Below are positions 6,832-50,878 of a stretch of DNA of 64,000 bases, piece by piece. The stretch's first letter is position 1. Every line of letters begins with the position of its first letter. The notes beneath the pieces were generated by a model. That model saw only the letters and a list, made by a program, of their open reading frames with translations, had not been told where the DNA came from and ran no database searches. Source of the DNA: Bacilli bacterium (GTDB taxonomy: Bacteria > Bacillota_I > Bacilli_A > ML615J-28 > CAG-698); NCBI GenBank assembly GCA_041675865.1, contig JBAYTA010000001.1, positions 6,332 through 70,331 on the forward strand. The letters are read 5' to 3'. Position numbers and translations under genes: made by a program.

Positions 6832-7680
6832 ATGCAAACAAAACTAGGACAAGTACAAAAATTTAAAGTACTAAGAGAAACACAAATAGGTTATATGTTA
6901 ACTATTACTGGAGAAGATGAATATTTTCTTCATAAAAATGAAACTGATTTTAGACATTTAACTGAAGGAGAGGAAGTAAACGGATTTTTATATAGTGATA
7001 AGAAAGCAAGAATTGCAGTTACATTAGTAACACCTAATGTAACTATCGATAAACCAGGTTTCACTAAAGTAATTGAAGTAAACAATTCACTTGGAGCATT
7101 TTTAGATATTGGTATTAGTAAAGATATCTTACTGTCAAAGGATGATCTGCCGATTGATTATAATGAATGGCCAATTGAAGGCGATGTGTTACTATGTATA
7201 TTAAGAGTTAAAGGTGATAGATTAATTTCTAAGATGCTTAATAAAAATGAAATCTTGGATTTAAATCTTCATTTTGAATTACCTTTAAATCAAAAAGTTA
7301 TTGGTTATGTTTATAGAATTACAGAAGATGGTATTAATATTGTTACTAAAAACTATAATATAGTTTTCGTCTATAAAACAAACATGCGTAAAAAGTATCG
7401 TTTGGGTGAAGAGGTTAATGTTAGGATTATTAAAAAAAATATTGATGATTACACTGGTACTTTATTTGATTCTAAGGAAGAGGTAATTAAAGAAGATTCT
7501 AAAAAGATTTTAGATTATTTAAATAAGAATAATGGTATAATGTCTATTACTGAAAAATCAGATCCAACTGTTATATATAAAGTATTTGGAATGAGTAAAA
7601 ATGCATTTAAAAATGCTCTTGGGTCTTTATATAAAGCTAAGCAAATTGAGATGGATGACGAAAAGGTTGTTTTATTGTAG
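6832..7680 (+). CDS. CvfB/YitL-family S1-domain RNA-binding protein
   Basis: Repeated S1-like barrels and a C-terminal winged-helix, 282 aa. It is translationally coupled 3 nt after dinB. Confidence 0.65.
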   Translation: MQTKLGQVQKFKVLRETQIGYMLTITGEDEYFLHKNETDFRHLTEGEEVNGFLYSDKKARIAVTLVTPNVTIDKPGFTKVIEVNNSLGAFLDIGISKDILLSKDDLPIDYNEWPIEGDVLLCILRVKGDRLISKMLNKNEILDLNLHFELPLNQKVIGYVYRITEDGINIVTKNYNIVFVYKTNMRKKYRLGEEVNVRIIKKNIDDYTGTLFDSKEEVIKEDSKKILDYLNKNNGIMSITEKSDPTVIYKVFGMSKNAFKNALGSLYKAKQIEMDDEKVVLL

Positions 7681-7829
7681 AAAAATGACAATGTCATTTT
7701 ATACAAAATTAGACAATAAATTATATCATCGACAAGATATGACTATATTTAATGTTTTTTGAACTTGATTTTATTGATTCGATAAATTTTTATTATTGAT
7801 TTATCATAATTTAAAATATGTGAAAAATC

Positions 7830-7858
7830 TTGACTTTCCTTTTGTTTTAGGTTAATAT
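7830..7858 (+). promoter_or_regulatory. sigma-A promoter for the hisS-aspS leader
   Basis: TTGACT (7830-7835), a 17-nt spacer, then TAATAT (7853-7858). Confidence 0.55.
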
Positions 7859-7865
7859 AGTAATA

Positions 7866-8095
7866 TCTATTTTAATAAATCGTTAAGGTAAGAATAGTAA
7901 TTAATTTGTTTTAAGTTAAAGCGAAAAGTGGTTGGTGAGAGCACTTACTTAAATATTAATGAAGGACACTTGCTTAGATTCCACCTAGGACGTAAATCTT
8001 GCGTTAAAGATTAAAGTGCATCATTTTGATGAAGTAAGGTGGTACCACGGATTAACAAATTCGTCCTTAAGATTTTTTCTTAAGGACTTTTATTT
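7866..8095 (+). promoter_or_regulatory. T-box riboswitch leader (tRNA-sensing transcription attenuator) of hisS-aspS
   Basis: The conserved T-box sequence 'AAGGTGGTACCACGG' lies at 8036-8050. It is followed by the terminator hairpin GTCCTTAAG..CTTAAGGAC plus TTTT at 8063-8092. A candidate specifier region 'GAAGGACAC' is at 7961-7969. Confidence 0.8.
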
Positions 8096-8118
8096 AAATT
8101 TAAATTAAGGAGATCAAT

Positions 8119-9381
8119 ATGTATCAAAAAGTAAAGGGAACTTTGGATTTTTATGATGAGAGTGCGATTAAGTATCGTTATTTAGAATCTGTTATATCTA
8201 AGGTTATTAAAAATTATGGTTATACTGAAGTTATTACACCAATTTTTGAAAATACAGAAATTTTTGTTAGAACATCTGGTGAAGAATCAGATATTGTAAC
8301 TAAAGAAATGTATACATTTTTAGATAAAGGCAAAAGAAGTATTACTTTAAGACCAGAAGGAACAGCTGGGGTTGTTAGAAGCTTTTTAGAGAATAAAATG
8401 TATGCAAATACAACTCTTACAAAACTGTATTATTTTGGTCCAATGTTTCGCTATGAAAGACCACAAACAGGTAGATACCGTCAATTTACACAATTTGGTG
8501 TAGAAGCTTTTGGTGCATCTTCACCTTTACTTGATGCAGATGTAATTATTAGCGCTTATCAAATTTTTAAATCTTTAGGAATCGATAACTTAAAATTAAA
8601 AATTAATACAATTGGTGATTTCACTTCTAGAAATAATTATGTTGATGTTTTACAAGATTATTTTAGGAAAGACATTGATAAACTATGTAGCGATTGTAAT
8701 AATAGATTAGAAAAAAATCCTTTAAGGATTTTAGATTGTAAAATTGATAGTGATAATCCAATAATTAAATCGGCTCCAAAAATTTCAGATTCCTTAACAC
8801 AAGAAGCAAAAGATTATTTTAAGGAAGTTTTAAAAGCTCTTGACTATAATAATATCAATTATTTTGTAGATGAAAATCTAGTTAGAGGACTTGATTATTA
8901 TACAGACACTGTCTTTGAATTTATAATTGAAAGTGATGATAATCTAAATGGTCTTGCAATTTGTGGTGGTGGAAAATACTCTGATATGGTTAAATCATTT
9001 GGAGGTCCAGATATTCCAGGAATTGGATATGCTTTTGGAATAGAAAGAGTTATCTCTATCATGGATCAAAAAGGTCTTTTTCCTAATTTAGATAAAGCTG
9101 CAGATGTTGTGTTAATTGCATTAGATGAAGAATCAAAATTATATAGTTTAAATCTTGCAAATAAATTACGAATGAATGGTTATTATGCAGATATAGATTA
9201 TTTTAATACTACTATGAAGCAACAATTTAAATTGAGTGATCGTTTGAATGCAAAATTCATTATAATAATTGGTGAAGAAGAGTTAGCAAATAATTCTCTA
9301 ACTATTAAAAACACTAAAACAAAAGAACAAATTACAATAAAAGAATATATGTTATTAGAATATTTAAAGGAGAAGATCTAA
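8119..9381 (+). CDS. hisS: histidine--tRNA ligase
   Basis: Class II aaRS motifs 'RPEGTAGVVR' and 'YYFGPMFRYERPQTGRYRQF', plus the HisRS anticodon-binding C-terminus. Confidence 0.95.
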   Translation: MYQKVKGTLDFYDESAIKYRYLESVISKVIKNYGYTEVITPIFENTEIFVRTSGEESDIVTKEMYTFLDKGKRSITLRPEGTAGVVRSFLENKMYANTTLTKLYYFGPMFRYERPQTGRYRQFTQFGVEAFGASSPLLDADVIISAYQIFKSLGIDNLKLKINTIGDFTSRNNYVDVLQDYFRKDIDKLCSDCNNRLEKNPLRILDCKIDSDNPIIKSAPKISDSLTQEAKDYFKEVLKALDYNNINYFVDENLVRGLDYYTDTVFEFIIESDDNLNGLAICGGGKYSDMVKSFGGPDIPGIGYAFGIERVISIMDQKGLFPNLDKAADVVLIALDEESKLYSLNLANKLRMNGYYADIDYFNTTMKQQFKLSDRLNAKFIIIIGEEELANNSLTIKNTKTKEQITIKEYMLLEYLKEKI

Positions 9382-11126
9382 TGCGAACACATAATAATGG
9401 CGAGTTAAGATTAAATGATGTAAATAAGGAAGTTAAATTAGTAGGTTGGGTTGCAAAAACTAGAAATTTAGGTGGTTTAATATTTATCGATTTAAGAGAT
9501 AGATATGGAATTACTCAAATTGTTTGTAAACCAGAAAATCCAAACTACGAAAAATTAGAAAATGTTAGAAATGAATACGTTCTTCAAGTTAAAGGGACTG
9601 TAATAGAAAGAGAAAGTAAAAATAAAAATTTACCAACAGGAGAAATTGAAGTTGTTGTACAAAATGTAATAATTTTGAGTGAAGCTAAAAATACTCCACT
9701 TATTATTGCCGATGAAACTGATGCTTTAGAAGATACTAGAATGAAGTATCGTTATTTAGACTTAAGAAGACCAGTAATGCAAAAGAACTTAATTCTCCGT
9801 CATAATATTGCAAAGTCAGTGAGAAACTATTTTAATGATTTAGATTTTGTTGAAATTGAGACTCCTGTATTTGGTAAATCAACTCCAGAAGGAGCAAGAG
9901 ATTACTTAGTTCCATCCAGAGTTAATCCAGGAAAGTTTTATGCACTTCCTCAATCACCACAAATCTATAAACAATTATTAATGGTTTCAGGATTTGAACG
10001 TTATTATCAAATAGTAAAGTGTTTCCGTGACGAAGACCAAAGAGCAGACCGTCAAATGGAATTTACTCAAATCGATGTTGAAATGAGTTTTGTAGATGAA
10101 GAAGATATTTATGTTTTAGTAGAAAAATTAATTTCCAAAATGATGAAGGAAGTTAAAAATATTGATGTTGAACTTCCATTCCCACGCTATAAATATGAGG
10201 AATCTTTAGATATCTTTGGAACTGATAAACCAGATACAAGATTTGCTTTACATTTAGTTAATATTGAAGATGCTATTAAAAATATTGAATTTGCAGTATT
10301 TACTGATACAATAAAAAATGGTGGAGTAGTAAAAGCTATTAATGCAAAAGATGCTGCAAATAAATATTCTCGTAAAGATATTGATAGATTAACAAATGAA
10401 GTTAAGAAATATAAGGCAAAAGGCCTTGCTTGGTTAAAATATGATAATAATGAATTTAGTGGATCGATTGTTAAATTCTTAACTGATGAAATAAAAGAAA
10501 ATTTAATTAAAAAATTAAATATTGAAAATAACGATATTATATTTATCGTAAGTGATGATAAGAAAATAACAAATCCTTCGCTTGGTCATTTAAGAAATGT
10601 CTTAGGAAAAGAATTAAATTTAATTGATAACTCAAAATTTAATTATTTATGGATAGTTGATTTTCCTTCTTTTGAATATGATGAAGAAGAAGGCCGTTAT
10701 ATCGCTGCCCATCATCCTTTTACATCGCCAAAGGATGAATTTAAAGATAAACTTCTATCAAACCCAGAAGAATGTTATTCTAAATGTTATGACTTAGTCT
10801 TAAATGGTTTTGAACTTGGAAGTGGATCAATTAGAATACATGACCAAAAAGTTCAATCAGATATGTTTAAAGCTATTGGTTTAAGCGATGATGAAATTAA
10901 AGAAAAATTTGGTTTCTTTGTTGAAGCATTAAAATATGGTACACCACCTCATGGTGGAATAGCATTAGGTTTAGATAGACTTGCTATGATTCTAACAGGC
11001 TCAACATCATTAAGAGATGTTATTGCATTCCCTAAATCTGCTTCCGCAATTGATCCAATGAGTGAAGCACCAAGTTTTATTAGTCAAAAACAATTAGATG
11101 AATTAAAATTGGTTATTAAAAAATGA
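9381..11126 (+). CDS. aspS: aspartate--tRNA ligase
   Basis: An N-terminal OB fold, 'FRDEDQRADRQMEFTQID', the GAD insertion, and 'GGIALGLDRLAM'. The start overlaps the hisS stop (TAATG). Confidence 0.95.
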   Translation: MRTHNNGELRLNDVNKEVKLVGWVAKTRNLGGLIFIDLRDRYGITQIVCKPENPNYEKLENVRNEYVLQVKGTVIERESKNKNLPTGEIEVVVQNVIILSEAKNTPLIIADETDALEDTRMKYRYLDLRRPVMQKNLILRHNIAKSVRNYFNDLDFVEIETPVFGKSTPEGARDYLVPSRVNPGKFYALPQSPQIYKQLLMVSGFERYYQIVKCFRDEDQRADRQMEFTQIDVEMSFVDEEDIYVLVEKLISKMMKEVKNIDVELPFPRYKYEESLDIFGTDKPDTRFALHLVNIEDAIKNIEFAVFTDTIKNGGVVKAINAKDAANKYSRKDIDRLTNEVKKYKAKGLAWLKYDNNEFSGSIVKFLTDEIKENLIKKLNIENNDIIFIVSDDKKITNPSLGHLRNVLGKELNLIDNSKFNYLWIVDFPSFEYDEEEGRYIAAHHPFTSPKDEFKDKLLSNPEECYSKCYDLVLNGFELGSGSIRIHDQKVQSDMFKAIGLSDDEIKEKFGFFVEALKYGTPPHGGIALGLDRLAMILTGSTSLRDVIAFPKSASAIDPMSEAPSFISQKQLDELKLVIKK

Positions 11127-24728: not shown

Positions 24729-24797
24729 AACTCCTCCAGTAAAATTTTATTAGTATAGATCCATAATTAAAAAGATAAATGTCTCCTATGAAGCAAA

Positions 24798-37494: not shown

Positions 37495-37504
37495 ATATAA
37501 ATAT

Positions 37505-37784: not shown

Positions 37785-38702
37785 TTCATCACTTTATAAA
37801 CTGCGCTTTGGATCTTTGTTTTAGCAATAATCATTATTATAAGGTTGGTCTAGTGTAATTTAAAATATCAAGGACTAAATTTCGCGTACAATCATTTTAA
37901 ATATGTATTTCTATTAACTAATCATTTAATATTAAAATTGATTATAGAGGAAATTTAAGGGCTTTAGTTAATTTACTCTTTTAATGTTAGAATATATATC
38001 ATTTATTAGATGAATCCACAAATCACTATTATGCATGGCCCAATAAAAAAATAGATCGTATAAAAAAATAAGCTTCTGTGAGAGGCTTATTTAAATTTGA
38101 GAGGGTATAAATTAATAGATACTAGAAGCTAATATGAGGATTTTAATTTAATATATAATATAATTGCTTTATACTCATTGTTATCAACAGTTATACAGTT
38201 TTACACATTGTTTTGATATATTAGCCATAGTGCTATATATATTTAACTTAACATAATATACATTATAGGAAGTTGTTTTACTATTGAATTATTCATTTAA
38301 TTTAACGGTTTAACCAATACTTTTATGGTTCTATTCTTTTTCCAAGACATCTTGTAATAACCTTATGATGACTTATTAAGCATATAATAGATAATCTTCT
38401 CTCATGAGCAGTTATTGTTCAGCTTTTATAAGTTTAAATTATAAAACAAAATTATATATCTGAAGTATATTTTTATATTAATGTACTTTCATAATAACTT
38501 ATGCATGTATACCCACAACTAATAATATAAATGTCTCTTGGAGCGGATACATACCAGATTTATATGGCTAAGAAAATTGTAGAATAATGTAATATAATCC
38601 TGATATATGATAACATAAAATGCTTTAATTTGAAACAACATTTTTATAAAATTTAATTCGCAAATCTAAGTTCAAATTTATTATTAAATTATTAATATAA
38701 AT

Positions 38703-38729
38703 AGTGCCTTTAGTATAAACTAAGGCACT
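38703..38729 (-). terminator. hairpin downstream of the ABC exporter operon
   Basis: An AGTGCCTT..AAGGCACT stem about 90 nt past the stop of the last ABC gene. Confidence 0.45.
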
Positions 38730-38816
38730 CTAATAAAGTATTATTGGTAAATACCCATCCTATTAAAGATAATTGTCTCCTAGGAAGGGTATTTTTTTGT
38801 TTAGTAACTTTAATTA

Positions 38817-43394: not shown

Positions 43395-43412
43395 AATAAT
43401 CCTCCTGCCAAT

Positions 43413-43441
43413 ATTATATAAAAATATTAGACCGATGTCAA
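43413..43441 (-). promoter_or_regulatory. perfect consensus sigma-A promoter (minus strand)
   Basis: On the minus strand: TTGACA (43441-43436), a 17-nt spacer, then TATAAT (43418-43413), followed by the AGGAGG RBS. Confidence 0.65.
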
Positions 43442-43443
43442 CA

Positions 43444-43473
43444 ATTATTATTAGATAATTATCTAATAATAAT
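43444..43473. promoter_or_regulatory. 30-bp perfect palindrome abutting the -35 element (candidate operator)
   Basis: ATTATTATTAGATAATTATCTAATAATAAT is a perfect inverted repeat centred at 43458/43459. Confidence 0.5.
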
Positions 43474-43487
43474 GATAAAAAAAGAAA

Positions 43488-44282
43488 CTAGAACTCTTTT
43501 CTAATTTCTTCATTTATTTTTTCAATATATTCATTTGCTTTTTTCACAACACTTAACTTATTTCCATTTTTTGCAACACTTCTAAAATATTCTAATGCTC
43601 TTTTATAATCTGTTTGTTTATATGCAATCAATCCTAAATAATAAACATTTACTACTACATTAAATTTAGGGAAATTTGCTCTAAAAATTTTAGAAAACTC
43701 TTGCTCTGCAAGATTTAAATGGATATTTGCTAGGATATAATATCTTGCTATTATTTGATTATAATTAGATATTAACTGAGTTTTAAATTTTAGAGGGATT
43801 ATGTCAATCAATTCCTTTACTTGATTAATTAGTGTCTTAATTCGCTCTAATTCTTTTGTTTCCTCAAAATAATATATCCATGCTTTATAATACCAAAATC
43901 TAAGTGGAGGGCTAAAATTGGGCTCAAATTCGACTAAATCATCTAAAATATTCTTTGCTTCACCAAGTTCTCCAAGCGATAAATAAGCTAGACTTATTGT
44001 AATTTCATTTAAATATTTATTAGTTTTTGCTTGAATAAAATTACTTAAATATTTTTTATATTCAGTTATATATTTTAAAGGATCACATTCATCCAAATAT
44101 ATTTTTGAAATTCTTAGTAAATTTACTTTTTCTAATCTTAAAGTAAAATAATAAATTGCAAATAGGATTATTCCAATTAATATATATACACTTGACTGAA
44201 TTATCTCTAATATCACAAGAGGTAATACAAATACTACATAAATCGATGCAATAATCAATACGATTAATCTTAGTTTACTCAT
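43488..44282 (-). CDS. membrane-anchored TPR-repeat protein
   Basis: Two N-terminal transmembrane helices followed by TPR-like helical repeats. Its start overlaps the PHP gene stop by 4 nt. Confidence 0.6.
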   Translation of the reverse strand: MSKLRLIVLIIASIYVVFVLPLVILEIIQSSVYILIGIILFAIYYFTLRLEKVNLLRISKIYLDECDPLKYITEYKKYLSNFIQAKTNKYLNEITISLAYLSLGELGEAKNILDDLVEFEPNFSPPLRFWYYKAWIYYFEETKELERIKTLINQVKELIDIIPLKFKTQLISNYNQIIARYYILANIHLNLAEQEFSKIFRANFPKFNVVVNVYYLGLIAYKQTDYKRALEYFRSVAKNGNKLSVVKKANEYIEKINEEIRKEF

Positions 44283-45067
44283 ACATTTTTCCCAAATAAA
44301 TAGTGGACAATATTTAATTTTAAATCTCTTGCAAACTTGTAGGCTTTTTTAACATTTACATCACCTGTATAAGAGATTTTATGATTGTCTTCACCAATTA
44401 TAACTTTCGCCTTTTCATATTCTTGAACAATTTTCCAAAACTCGATTCTAGGATAAATATGAACAATATCTCCATCTTGATTAGTTATTGGTTTTCTTCT
44501 AATACCGTTAGCATTAACTTCTAATAAAACATTATATTTAATACTAGCTTCAATAATTTCTCGACTTACCTTTTCAGTCATTTGATTCCATGTTTGATAA
44601 TTAAATAAAAACAAATCAGGATGAGCTAATATTTTAAAATAACCAGTATTCATTCCTTCAATAACTTGATCTTTATATAAAACAACATTCTCTGCTGTCA
44701 TTTCTCTATAAATATCATATAGTTTATTTTTATTTCTAATAATATGCTGGCCTAAAATTAAATAATCTAACTCATCTAATAATTTTTTATAATAATCATT
44801 GTATTCATTCAGATATTCGATTTCTAAGCCTTTATATATTTTAATTTTATCACCATATTCTTTTATTGCAGCATCTAAAGAAGGTAAATAAATATTTCTA
44901 TATTCTTGTTTATTCATTCGAAATGTCCATTCATCTAAGAGTGGACCATGGTCACTTATACCAATTTCTTCATATTTTAATTCTATAGCTTTTTTAATAT
45001 AATCGGCTGGCATACCCTCTGCATGCTTACATAATTTGATATGTGTGTGATAATTTGTTTTATTCAT
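44279..45067 (-). CDS. PHP-domain phosphoesterase, HisJ (histidinol-phosphatase) family
   Basis: 'YHTHIKLCKHAEG' and 'GISDHGP' are HisJ-type PHP metal-binding motifs. Confidence 0.7.
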   Translation of the reverse strand: MNKTNYHTHIKLCKHAEGMPADYIKKAIELKYEEIGISDHGPLLDEWTFRMNKQEYRNIYLPSLDAAIKEYGDKIKIYKGLEIEYLNEYNDYYKKLLDELDYLILGQHIIRNKNKLYDIYREMTAENVVLYKDQVIEGMNTGYFKILAHPDLFLFNYQTWNQMTEKVSREIIEASIKYNVLLEVNANGIRRKPITNQDGDIVHIYPRIEFWKIVQEYEKAKVIIGEDNHKISYTGDVNVKKAYKFARDLKLNIVHYLFGKNV

Positions 45068-46088
45068 AATTAAATCCTTTATATATTTTTACCCATTTTG
45101 CACTTCTTCCCTTGCCCAAAGGTTTAATTCGCCCTTCATCACGCATTTTCATCAAAGCTCTATTAATTGTAGATTCACTAACATATGGATGGATAATCCT
45201 AATTTCATCTTTTGTGAAAATGTCTGGAAGCTTGGAAATAGTATTACCTATATTATCAGCTTTATTTAAGTTTGAATCAAATTTATAATCTTTAATAATA
45301 CTATAAGCTTTTTCATAACCATTTATTATTATTTTATCCATAAATCTAATAAAACCTAATGTTTGCGCAAATCCTTCTTTCCAATTAAAACTTGCATTTT
45401 TAACTTCAGTTTTGAATTCATTGTAATTTTCATATAATAGTTCAAAAAAGGAAATATATTTAAATGCTTCTAAATCAGATTTAAAAATTAATAAATAAAG
45501 TAATACAAAACTTGATGTAAAGTTGTTTTCTGTAAAAGGTGCGATGTTGTAAAAATCTATAAAGTAATTAAAAAACAAAGTTGTTCTTTCGTATGTATTT
45601 CTTTGAAGATAGATTTCCATTTGCTCATTAATTTCGTCTAAAATAAGTCTTTTACTTTTTGCTGCTTGACTTTTTAAAATAGCTCTTTTATTTGTTTCTA
45701 CAAAATCAAATTTAATATCTTTATAATGAGAATAAATATAATTTATTATATTTAAAACATCATTGCTTTGAAATCTTTGATGCTGATAGTTCCTTTGAAT
45801 ATTAGTTAAGGTTTCTTTTAAATTATAAAGTGTTGTTTCTTCTTTATTTCTAGGAGTTGAGTTTTTAGTTATAATCAAACGTGTTCTAGAATCAGTAATA
45901 TCTAGTTCTAATATTTGTGATAGAAAAAAAGTATCTCTTTCAATAGTTTGATCAATTATCTTATCAAGATCATTTTTTACAGCATCTTTAAAAAACTTAT
46001 TTTGACCTATCCATTTATAGATATTTGATAAAGAAACTATAATATCATTAGGGATAATGAACCTATCTATATTTAAAACTGTACTCAT
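45060..46088 (-). CDS. Fic-family-like protein with degenerate active-site motif and C-terminal winged HTH
   Basis: The central 'IAPFTENNFTSSFVLL' aligns to the Fic 'HPFx[DE]GNGRxxR' motif, but His, both Gly and both Arg are replaced. The C-terminal 'RIKPLGKGRSAKWVKI' resembles the Fic-associated wHTH. Confidence 0.55.
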   Translation of the reverse strand: MSTVLNIDRFIIPNDIIVSLSNIYKWIGQNKFFKDAVKNDLDKIIDQTIERDTFFLSQILELDITDSRTRLIITKNSTPRNKEETTLYNLKETLTNIQRNYQHQRFQSNDVLNIINYIYSHYKDIKFDFVETNKRAILKSQAAKSKRLILDEINEQMEIYLQRNTYERTTLFFNYFIDFYNIAPFTENNFTSSFVLLYLLIFKSDLEAFKYISFFELLYENYNEFKTEVKNASFNWKEGFAQTLGFIRFMDKIIINGYEKAYSIIKDYKFDSNLNKADNIGNTISKLPDIFTKDEIRIIHPYVSESTINRALMKMRDEGRIKPLGKGRSAKWVKIYKGFNYE

Positions 46089-46108: not shown

Positions 46109-46181
46109 AGCCTTCTAATAAATGTTTATCGATAAATATCCATCTTTGAAAAGATAAATGTCTATTAGAAGGCGTTTTTAT
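46109..46181. terminator. long hairpin (bidirectional terminator-like) with nested palindromes between parC and the Fic-like gene
   Basis: GCCTTCTAATA (46109-46119) pairs with TATTAGAAGGC (46162-46172), flanked by T-runs on both strands. TTTATCGATAAA and ATCTTTGAAAAGAT palindromes sit inside the loop. Confidence 0.5.
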
Positions 46182-46209: not shown

Positions 46210-48690
46210 TTAGCTAAAATCGTTGTTATTTCTAACAATTATTAAATTTAATGGTGTTTTTACTTTTTTAGAATTAATCTTTTTACCTGTTGCACTAGTA
46301 GCACTTCTTATATCAGAGAAATCTAATTTTTCATATCCTTCTTCACCATCAATATATGAATCTAGATCTAGATTAGCATTTTTACGATGAATTATACTTG
46401 ATGAAATTATATTGTTGTTCACAGTTTTCATCATTTGCATATATTGTTTACCAACATTGTTTTTTCTTCCCTTGATAATTTCATCTATTCTAAATCTCTT
46501 AACATTACAGTTAGCAGTTAAGACTACTATTAGATCTTTTTCATCAATATAATGTCCACCAACTACAACATCTTTTGGTCTACTCTTAAGTTCTATTGCT
46601 TTTACTCCAACTGCAGAAATTGCCATTTCTGGTATTTCTTCAGAACTATATCTGTTCATATAACCATCAGCAGTAATAACAACTACTTCAGGATTTACTT
46701 CACTTGTAATATCTACACTTACTACTTCATCATCATCTCTTAATTTAGTAGCTCTAAGTGCTCTTGAATATCTTGTCGCATACAGATGTTTCACATGTGT
46801 CTTTTTAATAAAACCATTTTTTGTAGTAAACAGTATATATTTATTTGCTTCAAAATCATCAATTGGAACTGAGAATATTACTTTTTCAACTGATTCAATA
46901 TTAACTAAAGTTGATATATGGTAACCCAAATCTTTATGTTTCACATCAGGTATTTTTGAAACTGGTAAATATACATAATTTCCACGATCTGTAAAGAATA
47001 ACATTACATCTAATGTAGTAACTTCATAAGTAGCAACTATAAAGTCATTATCTTTAAGTTTAGTTTCATCACCATTTGCATAAGCCTTTGGTGTAAGTCT
47101 TTTAATATAGCCATCATTAGTTAAAATGATTACCATATCTTCTTTCGCAATCAACTCTTTAACTTCAACTTTTACTTCTTCAATTTCATGTTCAATTACT
47201 GTTTTTCTTGGAACATTAATTTTCTTATATGTATTTTTAAGTTCTAGTTTTATTTGTTTAACTAATTCATCTTCACTAGAAAGGATAGCAACTAGCCTAT
47301 CAATAAGTTCATTAAGTTCTTCTTTTTCTTTTTGTAAAGCAAAAATATCGGTATTTGTAAGACGATATAATTGCAACATTACAATAGCTTCAGCTTGAGC
47401 ATAAGAGAATTCATAATTACTTACTAAATTTTCTATTGCATCTTTTTTGTTGTTAGAATTCCTAATTGTTTTAATAACAGCATCTAATATAGATACCATT
47501 GAAATTAATCCGTCGACTATATGTAATCTTTTCCTTGCGGCATTTAATTCATAATTACTACGGTTAATTACTACATCTTTTTGATGAGTTATATAGTAAT
47601 CTAAATACTCAATTAATCCTAGTTGTAGGGGACGTTTATTAGCAATTGCAACTATATTAAAGTTATAGTTTGATTGTAATTCAGTTGCTTGGAAGAAGAA
47701 ATTTTTAATATCTTCAGGATTCACATCTTTTCGAATATCAACAACAATTCTTAAACCTTCTCTATCTGTTTCATCTCTAATATCTATAATTCCATCAATG
47801 TTTTTCTTTACATAAACTTCACTCATTTTTTTAACTAAATTAGCTTTGTTTACATCATAAGGAATCTCAGAAATGATAAGCTTATACATCTTAGACTCTT
47901 CTGTTATTTCTACCTTCGCTTTTACAATTATCTTTCCCTTACCAGTTTTATATGCATTAATAATTCCGTCTAACCCTTGGATAATCCCTCCCGTTGGAAA
48001 ATCAGGACCCGGAACAATTTTCATCAAATCTTTTAAACTTGCATCAGGATGATCTAATTTATAAATTGTAGCTTCGATAATCTCACCAACATTATGAGGA
48101 GGAATTTCAGTTGCATAACCAGCAGATATACCTGAAGCTCCATTTACAAAGAGATTCGGATATTTAGCAGGTAATACAGTAGGTTCATATTCTTCATCAT
48201 CAAAATTAGGAATAAAACCAACAGTTTTTTTATTAATATCTTCTAATAAATATTCAGAATACATTGATAATCTTGCTTCTGTATAACGCATTGCCGCAGC
48301 AGGATCACCGTCAATACTTCCATTATTACCATGCATTTCAATTAAAGGTAGTCTTGTTTTAAAATCTTGAGACATTCTCACCATAGCATCATAAACAGAT
48401 GAGTCACCATGAGGATGATATTTACCTATAACTTCACCAACAATTCTTGCAGATTTCTTAAATGGTTTATTTGAAAACATTCCAAGTTTAAACATTGCAT
48501 AAAGAATTCTTCGTTGTACAGGTTTTAAACCGTCTCTAACGTCAGGAATTGCTCTATCTTGAATTATATATTTAGAATATCTACCAAACCTATCACCAAA
48601 TATATCTTCAAGATTTTCTTGGATTATTTTCTCATTTACGAATTCTTCAATTTTTTTAGTTGTTTTACTCTTTTTAGATCTATTCATCAA
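46210..48690 (-). CDS. parC: DNA topoisomerase IV subunit A
   Basis: The type IIA A-subunit catalytic region contains a ParC-like '[22 protein letters not shown]'. It is paired with parE and sits next to plsY, as in Bacillus. Confidence 0.8.
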
Positions 48691-50623
48691 TTGATACCTC
48701 TTCTAAAGTGAAATTATCTTCGAATTCAAATGAAACATTATTATCAATCCATTCTCTTCTTGGACCTACTTCATCCCCCATTAGTACACTTACACGATTA
48801 TCTGCATCAGAGAAATCTTCAATCTTTACTTGAATAAGTGTTCTAGTTTCTGGATTCATTGTTGTATCCCAAAGTTGATCTGCATTCATCTCACCCAAAC
48901 CTTTAAATCTTTGGATTAAAACATTTTTATTAGATTCAACTTTTGCTTTTAATTCTTCGTCAGTCCATGCATATTCAATTTTATTTTTTATTGTTAATTT
49001 ATATAATGGTGCTTGCGCAATATATACATAACCTTGTTCAATTAATTCTCGCATATATCTAAAGAAGAATGTTAGTAATAATACTTGAATATGTGCTCCA
49101 TCAGTATCAGCATCGGTCATAATGATAATTTTGCTATAGTTTGATTTATCTATATTAAATTCTCTACCAAACCCTGCACCAATAGAATAAATCATTGACA
49201 TTATTTCTTCATTTTTAAGTAAATCTTCTGTCTTGATTCTTTCTACATTTAAGACCTTACCTCTAAGAGGTAGGATAGCTTGGAAGCGACGATCTCTTCC
49301 TTGTTTAGCACTACCACCAGCTGAATCACCTTCGACGATAAATAATTCATTATTCTTACGATTTTTATCTTGAACTGGTGCTAACTTCCCAGCCATATTT
49401 GCAGTCTTACCAACTTTTTGTTTAATCATTCTAACTTCTTCACGCGCTTTTCTAGCAGCTTCGCGTGCTTTTGCAGCTCGGATTGCATTAGAGATTAAGA
49501 TATTTGCAATTTCTCCCTTTTCATTTAAGAAGAATTTCATTTGTTCTAGAACAATAGTTTCAACTGCAAGTTTTGCTTCAGTAGTACCTAATTTATTTTT
49601 TGTTTGTCCTTCAAATTGAAGTATATCTTCGCCTACTCTAATTGATAAAACAGCAGTTAAACCTTCTCTAACATCATTACCTTCTAAATTAGGATCCTTA
49701 TCTTTTAATAAACCCTTCATTCTTGCATAATCATTAAATGCTCTAGTAATTGCTGCTCTAAAGCCTGTTTCATGTGTTCCACCATCTCTAGTACGAATAT
49801 TATTAACAAAGGATAATACATTCTCAGAGAATGATTTTTTAGAATATTGAAGAGCACATTCAACTTGAATATTTGAGTTTGTTCCTTCTAAGAAAACGAC
49901 TTCATGAATAGCTTGTTTACCTTTATTTATTTCCTCCACAAATTCAGAAATACCATTTTCAAACATAAAGGTATCACTTGCACCAGTTCTTTCATCAACT
50001 AAATCAATTTTTAAACCTCTGATTAAAAATGCAGATTCTCTTAGTCTTTGTACACATTGTTTATAATCAATAATGGTTGTTGAAAAAATAAGTGGGTCTG
50101 GTTTAAAATGAACTGTAGTTCCAGTTTTCTTTGATTCACCAATAAATTTATGCTTATGGATCTTTGCTCCACCATTCTCAAATTTTTGGTAATAAATCTT
50201 TCCTTCTCTTGCAATCTTAAGTTCAACAAGTTCACTTAATGCATTTACAACACTCGAACCAACACCATGTAGGCCTCCAGACACTTTGTATGCACCACCA
50301 GCTTCAAATTTTCCACCAGCATGTAAAGTACAAAATACTACTTGCGGAGTAGGTACTCCAGTCTTATGCATACCAATAGGAATTCCTCTACCATTATCTA
50401 TAACCTCAACAGAATTCCCTTTATGAATGATAACTTTTACATAGTTTGCATATCCGGTCAAAACTTCGTCAATTGCATTATCTACAATTTCCCAAATTAA
50501 ATGATGTAGTCCTCTTGAATCCGTACTTCCAACATACATACCAGGACGTTTTCGAATAGCTTCTAACCCTTGTAAGACTTGAATTTTGGATTCATCATAT
50601 TTTTCAATTTTCTTCTTGGCCAT
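48680..50623 (-). CDS. parE: DNA topoisomerase IV subunit B
   Basis: A GHKL ATPase with TOPRIM 'EGDSAGG'. I chose the ATG at 50623 giving '[22 protein letters not shown]'; the GTG at 50632 is an alternative. Confidence 0.8.
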
Positions 50624-50878
50624 ATTTAACACAAACCTTTCATTAGTATAATTTATTATAGCATATATTTAATAAAAAGTAAACAACTATTATCATTATT
50701 TTATTATGCTCATATGCAATAAATGAGTATGTTTATTGTAGAGAATTATGTCGAATTTGAAAATGTTGACTATATTAAAAAGAGATCTTTTTATAGATTA
50801 TTGTCATTTTAAATTAAATATTTGCTTGTTTTAATATCCCATTTAGAGTATAATAGATATCATATAAAGGTGTATTAA

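Follow-up and report, generated by a model that had tools for sequence, protein, structure and literature searches.

The 64,000-nt stretch of DNA analyzed here (contig JBAYTA010000001.1 of a Bacilli bacterium; referred to as the window, to whose positions all coordinates refer unless another locus is named) encodes, directly downstream of the genes for topoisomerase IV (parE and parC), a protein of 342 aa, designated pFic, which is predicted to adopt the Fic fold with a degenerate enzyme signature and to carry a C-terminal winged helix-turn-helix (wHTH). Judged from the alignments of its relatives, the catalytic histidine, the GNG anion hole, and both phosphate-binding arginine residues are gone throughout the family. 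Degenerate Fic motifs, non-catalytic Fic folds (AvrB and BepC), and Fic-HTH transcription factors (CccR) are already known; what is new is a large, unannotated, and chromosomally fixed clade which has lost every catalytic element and is tied to parEC. The role that we consider most probable for pFic is that of a non-catalytic DNA-binding protein.

Fold and active-site register of pFic

The Fic enzyme signature, HxFx(D/E)GNGRxxR, comprises the catalytic histidine, the GNG anion hole, and two arginine residues. When the pFic sequence was scanned on its own, no match to Pfam PF02661 (Fic/DOC) was obtained, even at E ≤ 1, and no Fic match in the NCBIfam or PADLOC models; these scans, Pfam included, returned weak winged-helix matches only. 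Fic homology surfaced only via phmmer against the PDB sequences and via profile searches. In the former, the structure 8UQU was matched at E = 7e-15, with IHPFPDGNGRMSR opposite IAPFTENNFTSSF, and GKGRSAKWVK opposite GKGRGAKWIK of 8UQU. A family profile built from 92 diverse members (identity down to 23%) matched 8UQU at E = 7e-39 over positions 23–334 and put residues 183–194 on the Fic signature, and the motif register obtained when hhalign compared the family with ten canonical relatives (335 aligned columns, probability 100%, E = 4e-43) did likewise. At E < 0.01, PF02661 was matched by 6 of the 92 family members; canonical relatives score 51–63 bits.

The AlphaFold2 model, for which a 44-sequence alignment served as the input, has a mean pLDDT (predicted local distance difference test) of 89.9 and a pTM (predicted template modeling score) of 0.80, and its motif loop reaches pLDDT values of 97–98. 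Foldseek found 14 matches in the PDB at E ≤ 1e-3, and every one of them is a Fic protein (8UQU, SoFic 3ZCN/3EQX, CbFic2 8CIL, the Mycobacterium marinum protein 7CB8, Dde_2494 4RGL, and BT_2513 3CUC); CccR (7XUX), FICD, and other Fic structures were matched at weaker E-values. The Foldseek probability was 1.00 for 8UQU, SoFic, CbFic2, FICD, and others. The complete Fic-wHTH architecture, consisting of an N-terminal helical segment, the Fic core, a long connecting helix, and the C-terminal winged helix, is present in the model, as alignments of 337–368 columns to 3EQX, 3ZCN, and 8CIL were obtained and the order of the secondary structure elements agrees. Sequence, profile–profile, and fold comparisons concur on placing APFTENNFTSSF opposite HPFxDGNGRxSR. 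The initial annotation, made from the letters of the sequence, had proposed this fold and this position for the degenerate motif, and both were borne out; the structure prediction and the alignment to Fic structures which it had suggested gave full-length Fic-wHTH matches and revealed no intact motif elsewhere in the protein. The Pfam Fic model, also suggested there, did not recognize pFic itself, and it was phmmer and the family-profile alignments that put the motif at this site.

Loss of catalytic and regulatory elements across the family

Within the degenerate signature, pFic retains the proline, the phenylalanine, a glutamate at the D/E position, and the motif asparagine, and has lost the histidine, both glycine, and both arginine residues. 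This is what the initial annotation had read from the sequence, except that the glutamate, counted there as retained, is not conserved in homologues: among the close ones, P184 and N189 are invariant and F185 is nearly so, whereas the D/E column reads S/A/E/D/Q, and the glutamate of pFic is therefore incidental. The statistics were extended to the 224 sequences of the degenerate clade (members and cluster representatives) for which the region could be aligned. Histidine occupies the catalytic column in 4 of these, glycine the first and the second Gly columns in 13 and 1, respectively, and a basic residue the first and the second Arg columns in 3 and 0, respectively, whereas the motif asparagine is present in 210. 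The histidine position is hypervariable (K/A/R/E/Q/S/N); at the second Gly position, 152 of the 224 sequences carry an acidic residue, which in the subclade of pFic itself is swapped for F/L/Y. When the hits of the exhaustive search were ranked, all sequences scoring better than E ∼ 1e-32 were degenerate, and canonical IHPFxDGNGRxSR proteins appeared only below, from P0239 onward. In a neighbor-joining tree built to probe whether the degenerate clade arose once, all but two long-branch members (P0246 and P0264) part from the canonical and partly degenerate group, but this exact split was recovered in only 6 of 50 bootstraps.

The elements which regulate and complement the active site of Fic enzymes appear to have eroded as well. 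The class II inhibitory motif (S/T)xxxE(G/N) was not found upstream of the core in pFic; SNRIEG of the canonical relatives aligns (hhalign and MAFFT) to SQILEL, where the glutamate position reads E/K/N/Q among close homologues and G/N is replaced by L/I. The flap, the β-hairpin on which Fic enzymes dock the target segment, has 12 residues fewer in the same alignments than its counterpart in canonical relatives and lacks their conserved GG...VRF elements; in the AlphaFold2 model, it forms isolated β-bridges only and, with a pLDDT of 57 at residues 131–140, is the sole low-confidence internal segment.

The former active-site loop could nevertheless serve another purpose. The remodeled pocket (P-F...N-[D/E], D178, N181, E167, S213, and S145-K146-R147) would then carry out a different reaction, or sense a small molecule which controls DNA binding, and this ligand might be related to the nucleoside kinase or the PHP phosphoesterase encoded nearby (see below). 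The conservation of the loop, with the asparagine and the acidic residue at the second Gly position prevailing as counted above, would fit such a role, as would the recurrence of the PHP gene as a neighbor, the presence of the nucleoside kinase gene in some lineages, and the fact that Fic folds support several chemistries (PMC4454073). However, the hypervariable histidine position and the loss of both arginine residues and of the glycine anion hole speak against an enzyme, the acidic residue would repel phosphates and is itself given up in the subclade of pFic, and E84, E167, and S213, near-invariant before residue 270, hardly suffice to make up an evident new catalytic site. An enzymatic or sensory function is, on balance, quite improbable.

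Partly degenerate Fic-wHTH proteins, lacking the catalytic histidine but keeping part of the motif and annotated as "Fic family protein", were also encountered (L088, 6001–7101; L089, 2353–3405); they represent independent cases. The form from Paenibacillus thiaminolyticus reads ISPFEYGNERIAR and the Solobacterium-type form reads IQPFEIGNESMS.

The winged helix and the N-terminal region

Across the 92 diverse members of the family profile, the best-conserved block is not the former active site but the winged helix, which reads HPxVSxSTINRxL...GxGRSAKW. According to DSSP, its helices comprise residues 276–286, 293–299, and 305–317 and its strands residues 290–292, 321–323, and 331–334, that is, an α-β-α-α-β-β topology. 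Invariant or near-invariant within this domain are F291, K293, P301, S304, T307, I308, R310, L312, I321, G327, R328, A330, and W332, and K276 and I284 lie just ahead of the conserved block; upstream of residue 270, only Y24, G28, E84, E167, and S213 are conserved to this degree. The calculated isoelectric point of the winged helix is basic (9.7) compared with that of the Fic core (5.9). Family members give weak Pfam matches to DIP2311-like_C, FUR, GntR, LexA, and MCM4 WH, and phmmer and the family profile mark the wHTH of pFic as homologous to those of 8UQU and CbFic2. As judged from this pattern of conservation, strong purifying selection acts on the C-terminal winged helix and on the hydrophobic core. 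The C-terminal wHTH had been anticipated in the initial annotation from its terminal GKGRSAKW-containing segment, and both topology and homology agree with that; GKGRSAKW is, however, the wing, with SESTINRALMKMRD being the recognition helix, and the domain is not peculiar to the Fic proteins of Firmicutes, the closest solved relative being from Bordetella. At the opposite end of the protein, DSSP assigns helices to residues 14–27, 30–59, 66–75, and 82–103 of the model.

Distribution and chromosomal position of the family

The pFic gene coincides with exactly one open reading frame on the minus strand of the window (G+C content 27%), the plus-strand translation of the same interval being riddled with stop codons. 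A word-indexed search yielded 429 homologues at E ≤ 1e-3, and when the family profile was run exhaustively against 1.84 billion representatives, 1,097 cluster representatives were retrieved, of which 510 reached E ≤ 1e-10 and 122 reached E ≤ 1e-30; these numbers establish that the gene is real and not a chance reading frame. The family forms ∼115 clusters at 50% identity, with full-length, frame-intact orthologues whose identity to pFic ranges from 23 to 99%. Scanning the GTDB species genomes revealed relatives in at least 263 species-level genomes; represented among the best 80 of these are Acholeplasmatales, Izemoplasmatales, Anaeroplasmataceae, CAG:307/CAG:698-type Bacilli, one Erysipelotrichaceae, and two complete Mycoplasmatota genomes. 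All members examined for which a source is named are annotated as "hypothetical protein" and derive from Acholeplasmatales, Acholeplasmataceae, Izemoplasmatales, or metagenome-assembled genomes (MAGs) of a "Bacilli bacterium".

Synteny was assessed at 68 non-redundant loci for which no less than 3 kb of upstream sequence was available. In 52 of these, parC ends no more than 300 nt upstream of the pFic gene on the same strand, the gap being 40 nt or less in 22 of the 52; in a further 10, parC lies 0.9–4.1 kb upstream, again on the same strand, and in the remaining 6, it is absent from the retrieved flank. The linkage between parEC and the pFic gene spans Acholeplasmatales, Izemoplasmatales, Anaeroplasmataceae, and two complete genomes, and many loci from different orders have a PHP gene next after pFic. 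In 6 of the 10 loci with distant parC, as well as in some whose flanks are short, parC and the pFic gene are separated by a gene of ∼550 codons (Table 1), the product of which is TGS-like with a C-terminal uridine kinase-like part ("nucleoside kinase" in RefSeq) and has an unannotated N-terminal half. It occurs in Anaeroplasmataceae, CAG:307-type Bacilli, an Erysipelotrichaceae MAG, and Mariniplasma; in the cultured species Mariniplasma anaerobium, the order is plsY/parE-parC-nucleoside kinase-pFic-...-tsf, with pFic being hypothetical in RefSeq. The family is vertically inherited in Acholeplasma-like Bacilli and has a fixed chromosomal place right after parE-parC. The initial annotation had pFic "leading an operon", which holds only in part: pFic is the third gene of a parE-parC-pFic array conserved across orders, but in the window, it may head a sub-unit consisting of the pFic gene, the PHP gene, and a gene for a tetratricopeptide repeat (TPR) protein.

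In the canonical and partly degenerate relatives examined, the linkage to parEC is missing and the settings are unrelated: the Paenibacillus relative is flanked, on a chromosomal contig, by an ABC transporter gene and other unrelated genes, the Solobacterium-type relative is the leading gene in a type I restriction-modification locus, a canonical relative from a gut metagenome occupies an isolated chromosomal site, and further relatives reside on Bacillus plasmids and two phages. No defense-system model of PADLOC was matched by the pFic protein.

Loss of all catalytic residues, together with the lack of any library annotation, is also what would be expected for a decaying, functionless relic of a Fic toxin or defense gene. 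The breadth of frame-intact, full-length orthologues, their strongly conserved blocks, their fixed chromosomal position, and the overlap with the next gene (see below) make such a relic extremely improbable, and the pseudogene reading was rejected on the grounds of conservation.

The M. anaerobium locus (NZ_AP024413.1) is deposited as plasmid pAa22_1, circular and 12.8 kb in size, which holds plsY, parE, parC, the nucleoside kinase gene, the pFic homologue, and tsf. As the genes carried are essential housekeeping genes, this record represents either a mini-chromosome or an assembly artifact.

Expression of the pFic gene and the 36-nt element

In the 22 loci where the gap between parC and the pFic gene is 40 nt or less, there is no room for a terminator or a promoter, which implies cotranscription. 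In Izemoplasmatales, a clean terminator follows parC, and σ70-like promoters precede the pFic gene. Taken together, the spacing and the signals predict that expression of the pFic gene accompanies that of parEC or comes right behind it. The 121-nt gap in the window contains a terminator-like hairpin of 64 nt (−26.3 kcal/mol, z = −3.1), after which TTATTTTG follows. This hairpin holds a weak promoter-like sequence (TAGACA-18-GATATT) and one copy of a 36-nt motif. In 19 Acholeplasmatales-like loci, an equivalent hairpin was found whose outer arms vary and covary, whereas the 36-nt core, GAGAAGATTATCTTTTAAAAGGTGGATAATTAnTCA, which includes an ATTATC...GATAAT inverted repeat, is conserved.

Conservation of this core so close to the gene suggested an operator. 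A scan with its position weight matrix revealed further copies at 24750–24785, 38366–38401, and 38744–38779 of the window, which like that at 46129–46164 are on the minus strand, and others elsewhere (e.g., L032 at 9828, minus strand, and L011 at 10944). In the window and many other loci, high-scoring copies are mostly situated 10–50 nt past the stop codons of unrelated genes, within terminator-like hairpins, and often with a T-run after them. A pFic-specific operator was therefore rejected: the dispersal of the core at other gene ends indicates a terminator-associated element and gives no evidence for autoregulation. It may represent a repeat that accompanies terminators, a site bound by a protein, or a small mobile element. 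A search for TTATC-N9–14-GATAA gave hits at chance level in the window, and neither the parC–pFic gap nor the 36-nt element had a match in Rfam at gathering thresholds. Interpreting the motif as a DnaA box (TTATCCACC versus TTATCCACA) or as a σ70 promoter is unsupported, the −35 region being poor and A−11 unconserved. Two of the copies lie between positions 37500 and 38800, a region of ∼1.3 kb between a CueP-like gene and an ABC exporter operon which is devoid of open reading frames longer than 65 aa and also contains a separate terminator hairpin (∼38697–38727, minus strand).

Proposed role of pFic and comparison with known systems

The closest solved relative of pFic is 8UQU, a Fic family ("Fido domain-containing") protein from Bordetella bronchiseptica, with a Foldseek template modeling score of 0.82–0.85 on the target. 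It has the three-part architecture in common with pFic, and the wing GKGRGAKWIK closes its sequence in the same manner; unlike pFic, it is proteobacterial and has an intact HPFPDGNGRMSR, the inhibitory motif SNRLEG, and a full-length flap. No paper citing this entry code was found in a literature search. SoFic (3EQX/3ZCN) and CbFic2 from Coxiella burnetii (8CIL) align structurally over the full length, including the wHTH, and the family profile places the CbFic2 wing KKGRSAAY opposite GKGRSAKW of pFic; both are, in contrast to pFic, active AMPylases/deAMPylases with a canonical motif and the inhibitory glutamate. Deleting the HTH of CbFic2 abolishes dimerization, including that induced by DNA, and the residual DNA binding of the truncated protein was judged unspecific by the authors (PMC10628234). 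CccR from Yersinia pseudotuberculosis (7XUX), like pFic, combines a Fic domain with a C-terminal HTH, although it is a weak structural match (Foldseek E ∼ 1e-3). It forms a dimer, binds a palindrome via the HTH, and represses its own promoter, and repression is retained in the H192A mutant (PMC9755527). CccR differs from pFic in being catalytically active (it AMPylates FtsZ) and a secreted effector of the type VI secretion system, encoded in an effector cluster. As a functional precedent for a Fic-wHTH protein that works as a transcription factor, it is the best available.

From these comparisons, pFic is probably a catalytically dead descendant of class II Fic-wHTH enzymes with the architecture of 8UQU, SoFic, CbFic2, and CccR, and acts as a non-catalytic DNA-binding protein co-expressed with topoisomerase IV. 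The winged helix would contact DNA, and the N-terminal helices together with the dead Fic core would supply a dimer or interaction scaffold, as in CccR and CbFic2; by the same analogy, pFic is probably dimeric. Its role would most likely be that of a transcriptional regulator or a nucleoid-associated factor tied to chromosome maintenance. The regulatory or scaffolding role envisaged in the initial annotation is, in this light, a reasonable inference.

Several observations weigh against this interpretation. DNA binding by pFic is deduced solely from homology and conservation, and no pFic-specific operator was found, the 36-nt motif upstream being dispersed and terminator-associated. In Izemoplasmatales, parC and the pFic gene have their own terminator and promoters, respectively, and in several lineages the nucleoside kinase gene intervenes, so the adjacency may mirror a string of housekeeping genes and not a common function. 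Furthermore, the loop that once formed the active site has kept P-F-x-x-x-N-[D/E], which could point to residual ligand binding or novel catalysis and not to a role in structure alone. Finally, the truncated flap, as modeled, makes it less likely that pFic docks onto ParE or a comparable protein in the way Fic enzymes do.

FicT proteins which target ParE and GyrB are small single-domain class I proteins lacking a wHTH. FicT/FicA modules and other Fic proteins AMPylating ParE or GyrB provide a thematic link between the Fic domain and the B subunits of topoisomerase IV and gyrase. As ParE/GrlB and GyrB are AMPylated by Fic enzymes from a range of bacteria, Staphylococcus aureus among them (PMC7479194), a direct tie to topoisomerase IV is attractive. 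The dead Fic domain would then descend from such enzymes and have kept target binding only, either tethering or modulating topoisomerase IV on DNA or shielding ParE from Fic toxins, which would account for its place in the parEC operon. The parE-parC-pFic adjacency conserved across orders, often with minimal gaps, and the absence of parEC linkage in canonical relatives are in line with this idea. However, ParE/GyrB-targeting FicT proteins are described as active toxins in toxin–antitoxin pairs (PMC8401265), belong to class I, and receive their inhibitory helix from the antitoxin (PMC3667792), whereas pFic groups with the class II wHTH forms, has no antitoxin partner, and lacks catalytic residues. 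A FicT/FicA module, in which a small Fic toxin adjoins its antitoxin in a mobile or accessory setting, was not recognized at the pFic locus: the neighbors of pFic are parC and the PHP phosphoesterase gene, its core position is conserved, and PADLOC returned no match. The flap which would dock onto the target is truncated and poorly ordered, unrelated genes (nucleoside kinase and tsf) belong to the same gene string, and the Izemoplasmatales genes are parted by terminator and promoters. A topoisomerase IV partner of this kind is considered unlikely. A more specific scenario, in which a Fic lineage was domesticated early in the Acholeplasma/Izemoplasma/RF39 radiation as a non-catalytic, DNA-bound accessory factor which is encoded in the parEC operon and recruits, positions, or regulates topoisomerase IV (or protects ParE from Fic toxins), is rather doubtful; if true, a pseudoenzyme would here act as the partner of a type II topoisomerase. 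A functional tie behind the parEC linkage would be tractable to test, as a homologue exists in the cultured M. anaerobium.

A non-catalytic DNA-binding protein, as favored here, would not be the first Fic fold acting by binding rather than catalysis, BepC from Bartonella and AvrB from Pseudomonas syringae being precedents (PMC7842960). Unlike pFic, BepC has a near-canonical motif (HxFxKGNGRxxR), and BepC and AvrB alike are effectors secreted to act on the host; they lack a wHTH and are not products of housekeeping chromosomal genes. Clades lacking key Fic residues have been noted in surveys (PMC4454073). No published description of the pFic family was found in the literature collection used, which is incomplete, even when "Fic domain" was combined with Acholeplasma. 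Fic proteins have been studied almost solely as enzymes and toxins; the pFic family gives a structural identity to "hypothetical" proteins and extends the very few known cases of a non-catalytic Fic fold by a housekeeping bacterial one. No current view is overturned by this result.

Neighborhood of the pFic gene

The window represents a chromosomal core region, with hisS-aspS behind a T-box, dinB, mutS2, recU, lepA, a gene for a XerD-like recombinase, dnaG-rpoD, and glyS. The pFic gene is embedded in a same-strand array of parE, parC, pFic, a gene for a PHP/HisJ-like phosphoesterase, and one for a membrane TPR protein (Table 1); the order of the latter two is kept in Acholeplasmatales-like loci. 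The PHP protein scores far below the NCBIfam cutoffs for histidinol phosphatase but retains the N-terminal HxH metal motif (YHTH). The overlap between the pFic and PHP genes implies translational coupling, and the PHP phosphoesterase is predicted from the gene overlaps to be coupled to both pFic and the TPR protein.

Table 1. Features of the pFic gene and its surroundings (window positions unless a locus is named).
Feature	Position	Strand	Remarks
pFic coding sequence	45060..46088	minus	342-aa Fic-fold pseudoenzyme with C-terminal winged helix (open reading frame, AlphaFold2, Foldseek, 8UQU profile match)
N-terminal helical region	45774..46088	minus	Residues 1–105; counterpart of the N-terminal helical/dimerization part of SoFic, CbFic2, and 8UQU
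Segment SQILEL	45903–45920		Aligned to inhibitory motif
Fic core	45279..45773	minus	Residues 106–270; includes the shortened, poorly ordered flap
Flap	45645–45725		Residues 122–148
Degenerate signature APFTENNFTSSF	45507..45542	minus	Residues 183–194; aligned to HPFxDGNGRxSR
Winged helix-turn-helix	45081..45263	minus	Residues 276–336; DSSP, conservation, weak Pfam matches, isoelectric point
Recognition helix SESTINRALMKMRD	45138–45179	minus
Wing GKGRSAKW	45093–45116	minus	Residues 325–332; β2–β3 hairpin
Hairpin in parC–pFic gap	46110..46173	minus	Terminator-like RNA fold
parC	46210..48690	minus	Topoisomerase IV subunit A; TIGR01061 parC_Gpos, 955 bits (cutoff 813); directly upstream of pFic
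parE	48680..50632	minus	Topoisomerase IV subunit B; TIGR01058 parE_Gpos, 939 bits (cutoff 900)
PHP-domain (HisJ-like) phosphoesterase gene	44279..45067	minus	PF02811, E = 5.5e-18; 8-nt overlap with pFic stop
Membrane-anchored TPR protein gene	43488..44282	minus	TPR Pfam matches; 4-nt overlap with PHP stop; last gene of the array
Nucleoside kinase gene, other loci	L086 5210–6922; L085 1121–2761; L091 (M. anaerobium) 7348–8988		Also in L052, L061, L062, L067, L069, L075, L077, L078, and L084

Beyond the TPR gene, a separately promoted ArsR-type gene and two ABC exporter genes follow. A perfect 24-nt palindrome, ATTATTAGATAATTATCTAATAAT, is located on the minus strand within positions 43395–43487, just upstream of a perfect TTGACA-17-TATAAT promoter, and is likely an autorepressor operator. 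This promoter serves a gene whose product, 341 aa in length, has an ArsR/SdpR-type HTH at its C-terminus and an uncharacterized N-terminal region of 250 aa; the two exporter genes, which are MsbA-like, come next. The T-box leader (Rfam RF00230, 97.8 bits) maps to positions 7874–8071 on the plus strand, upstream of hisS-aspS (8119–11126).

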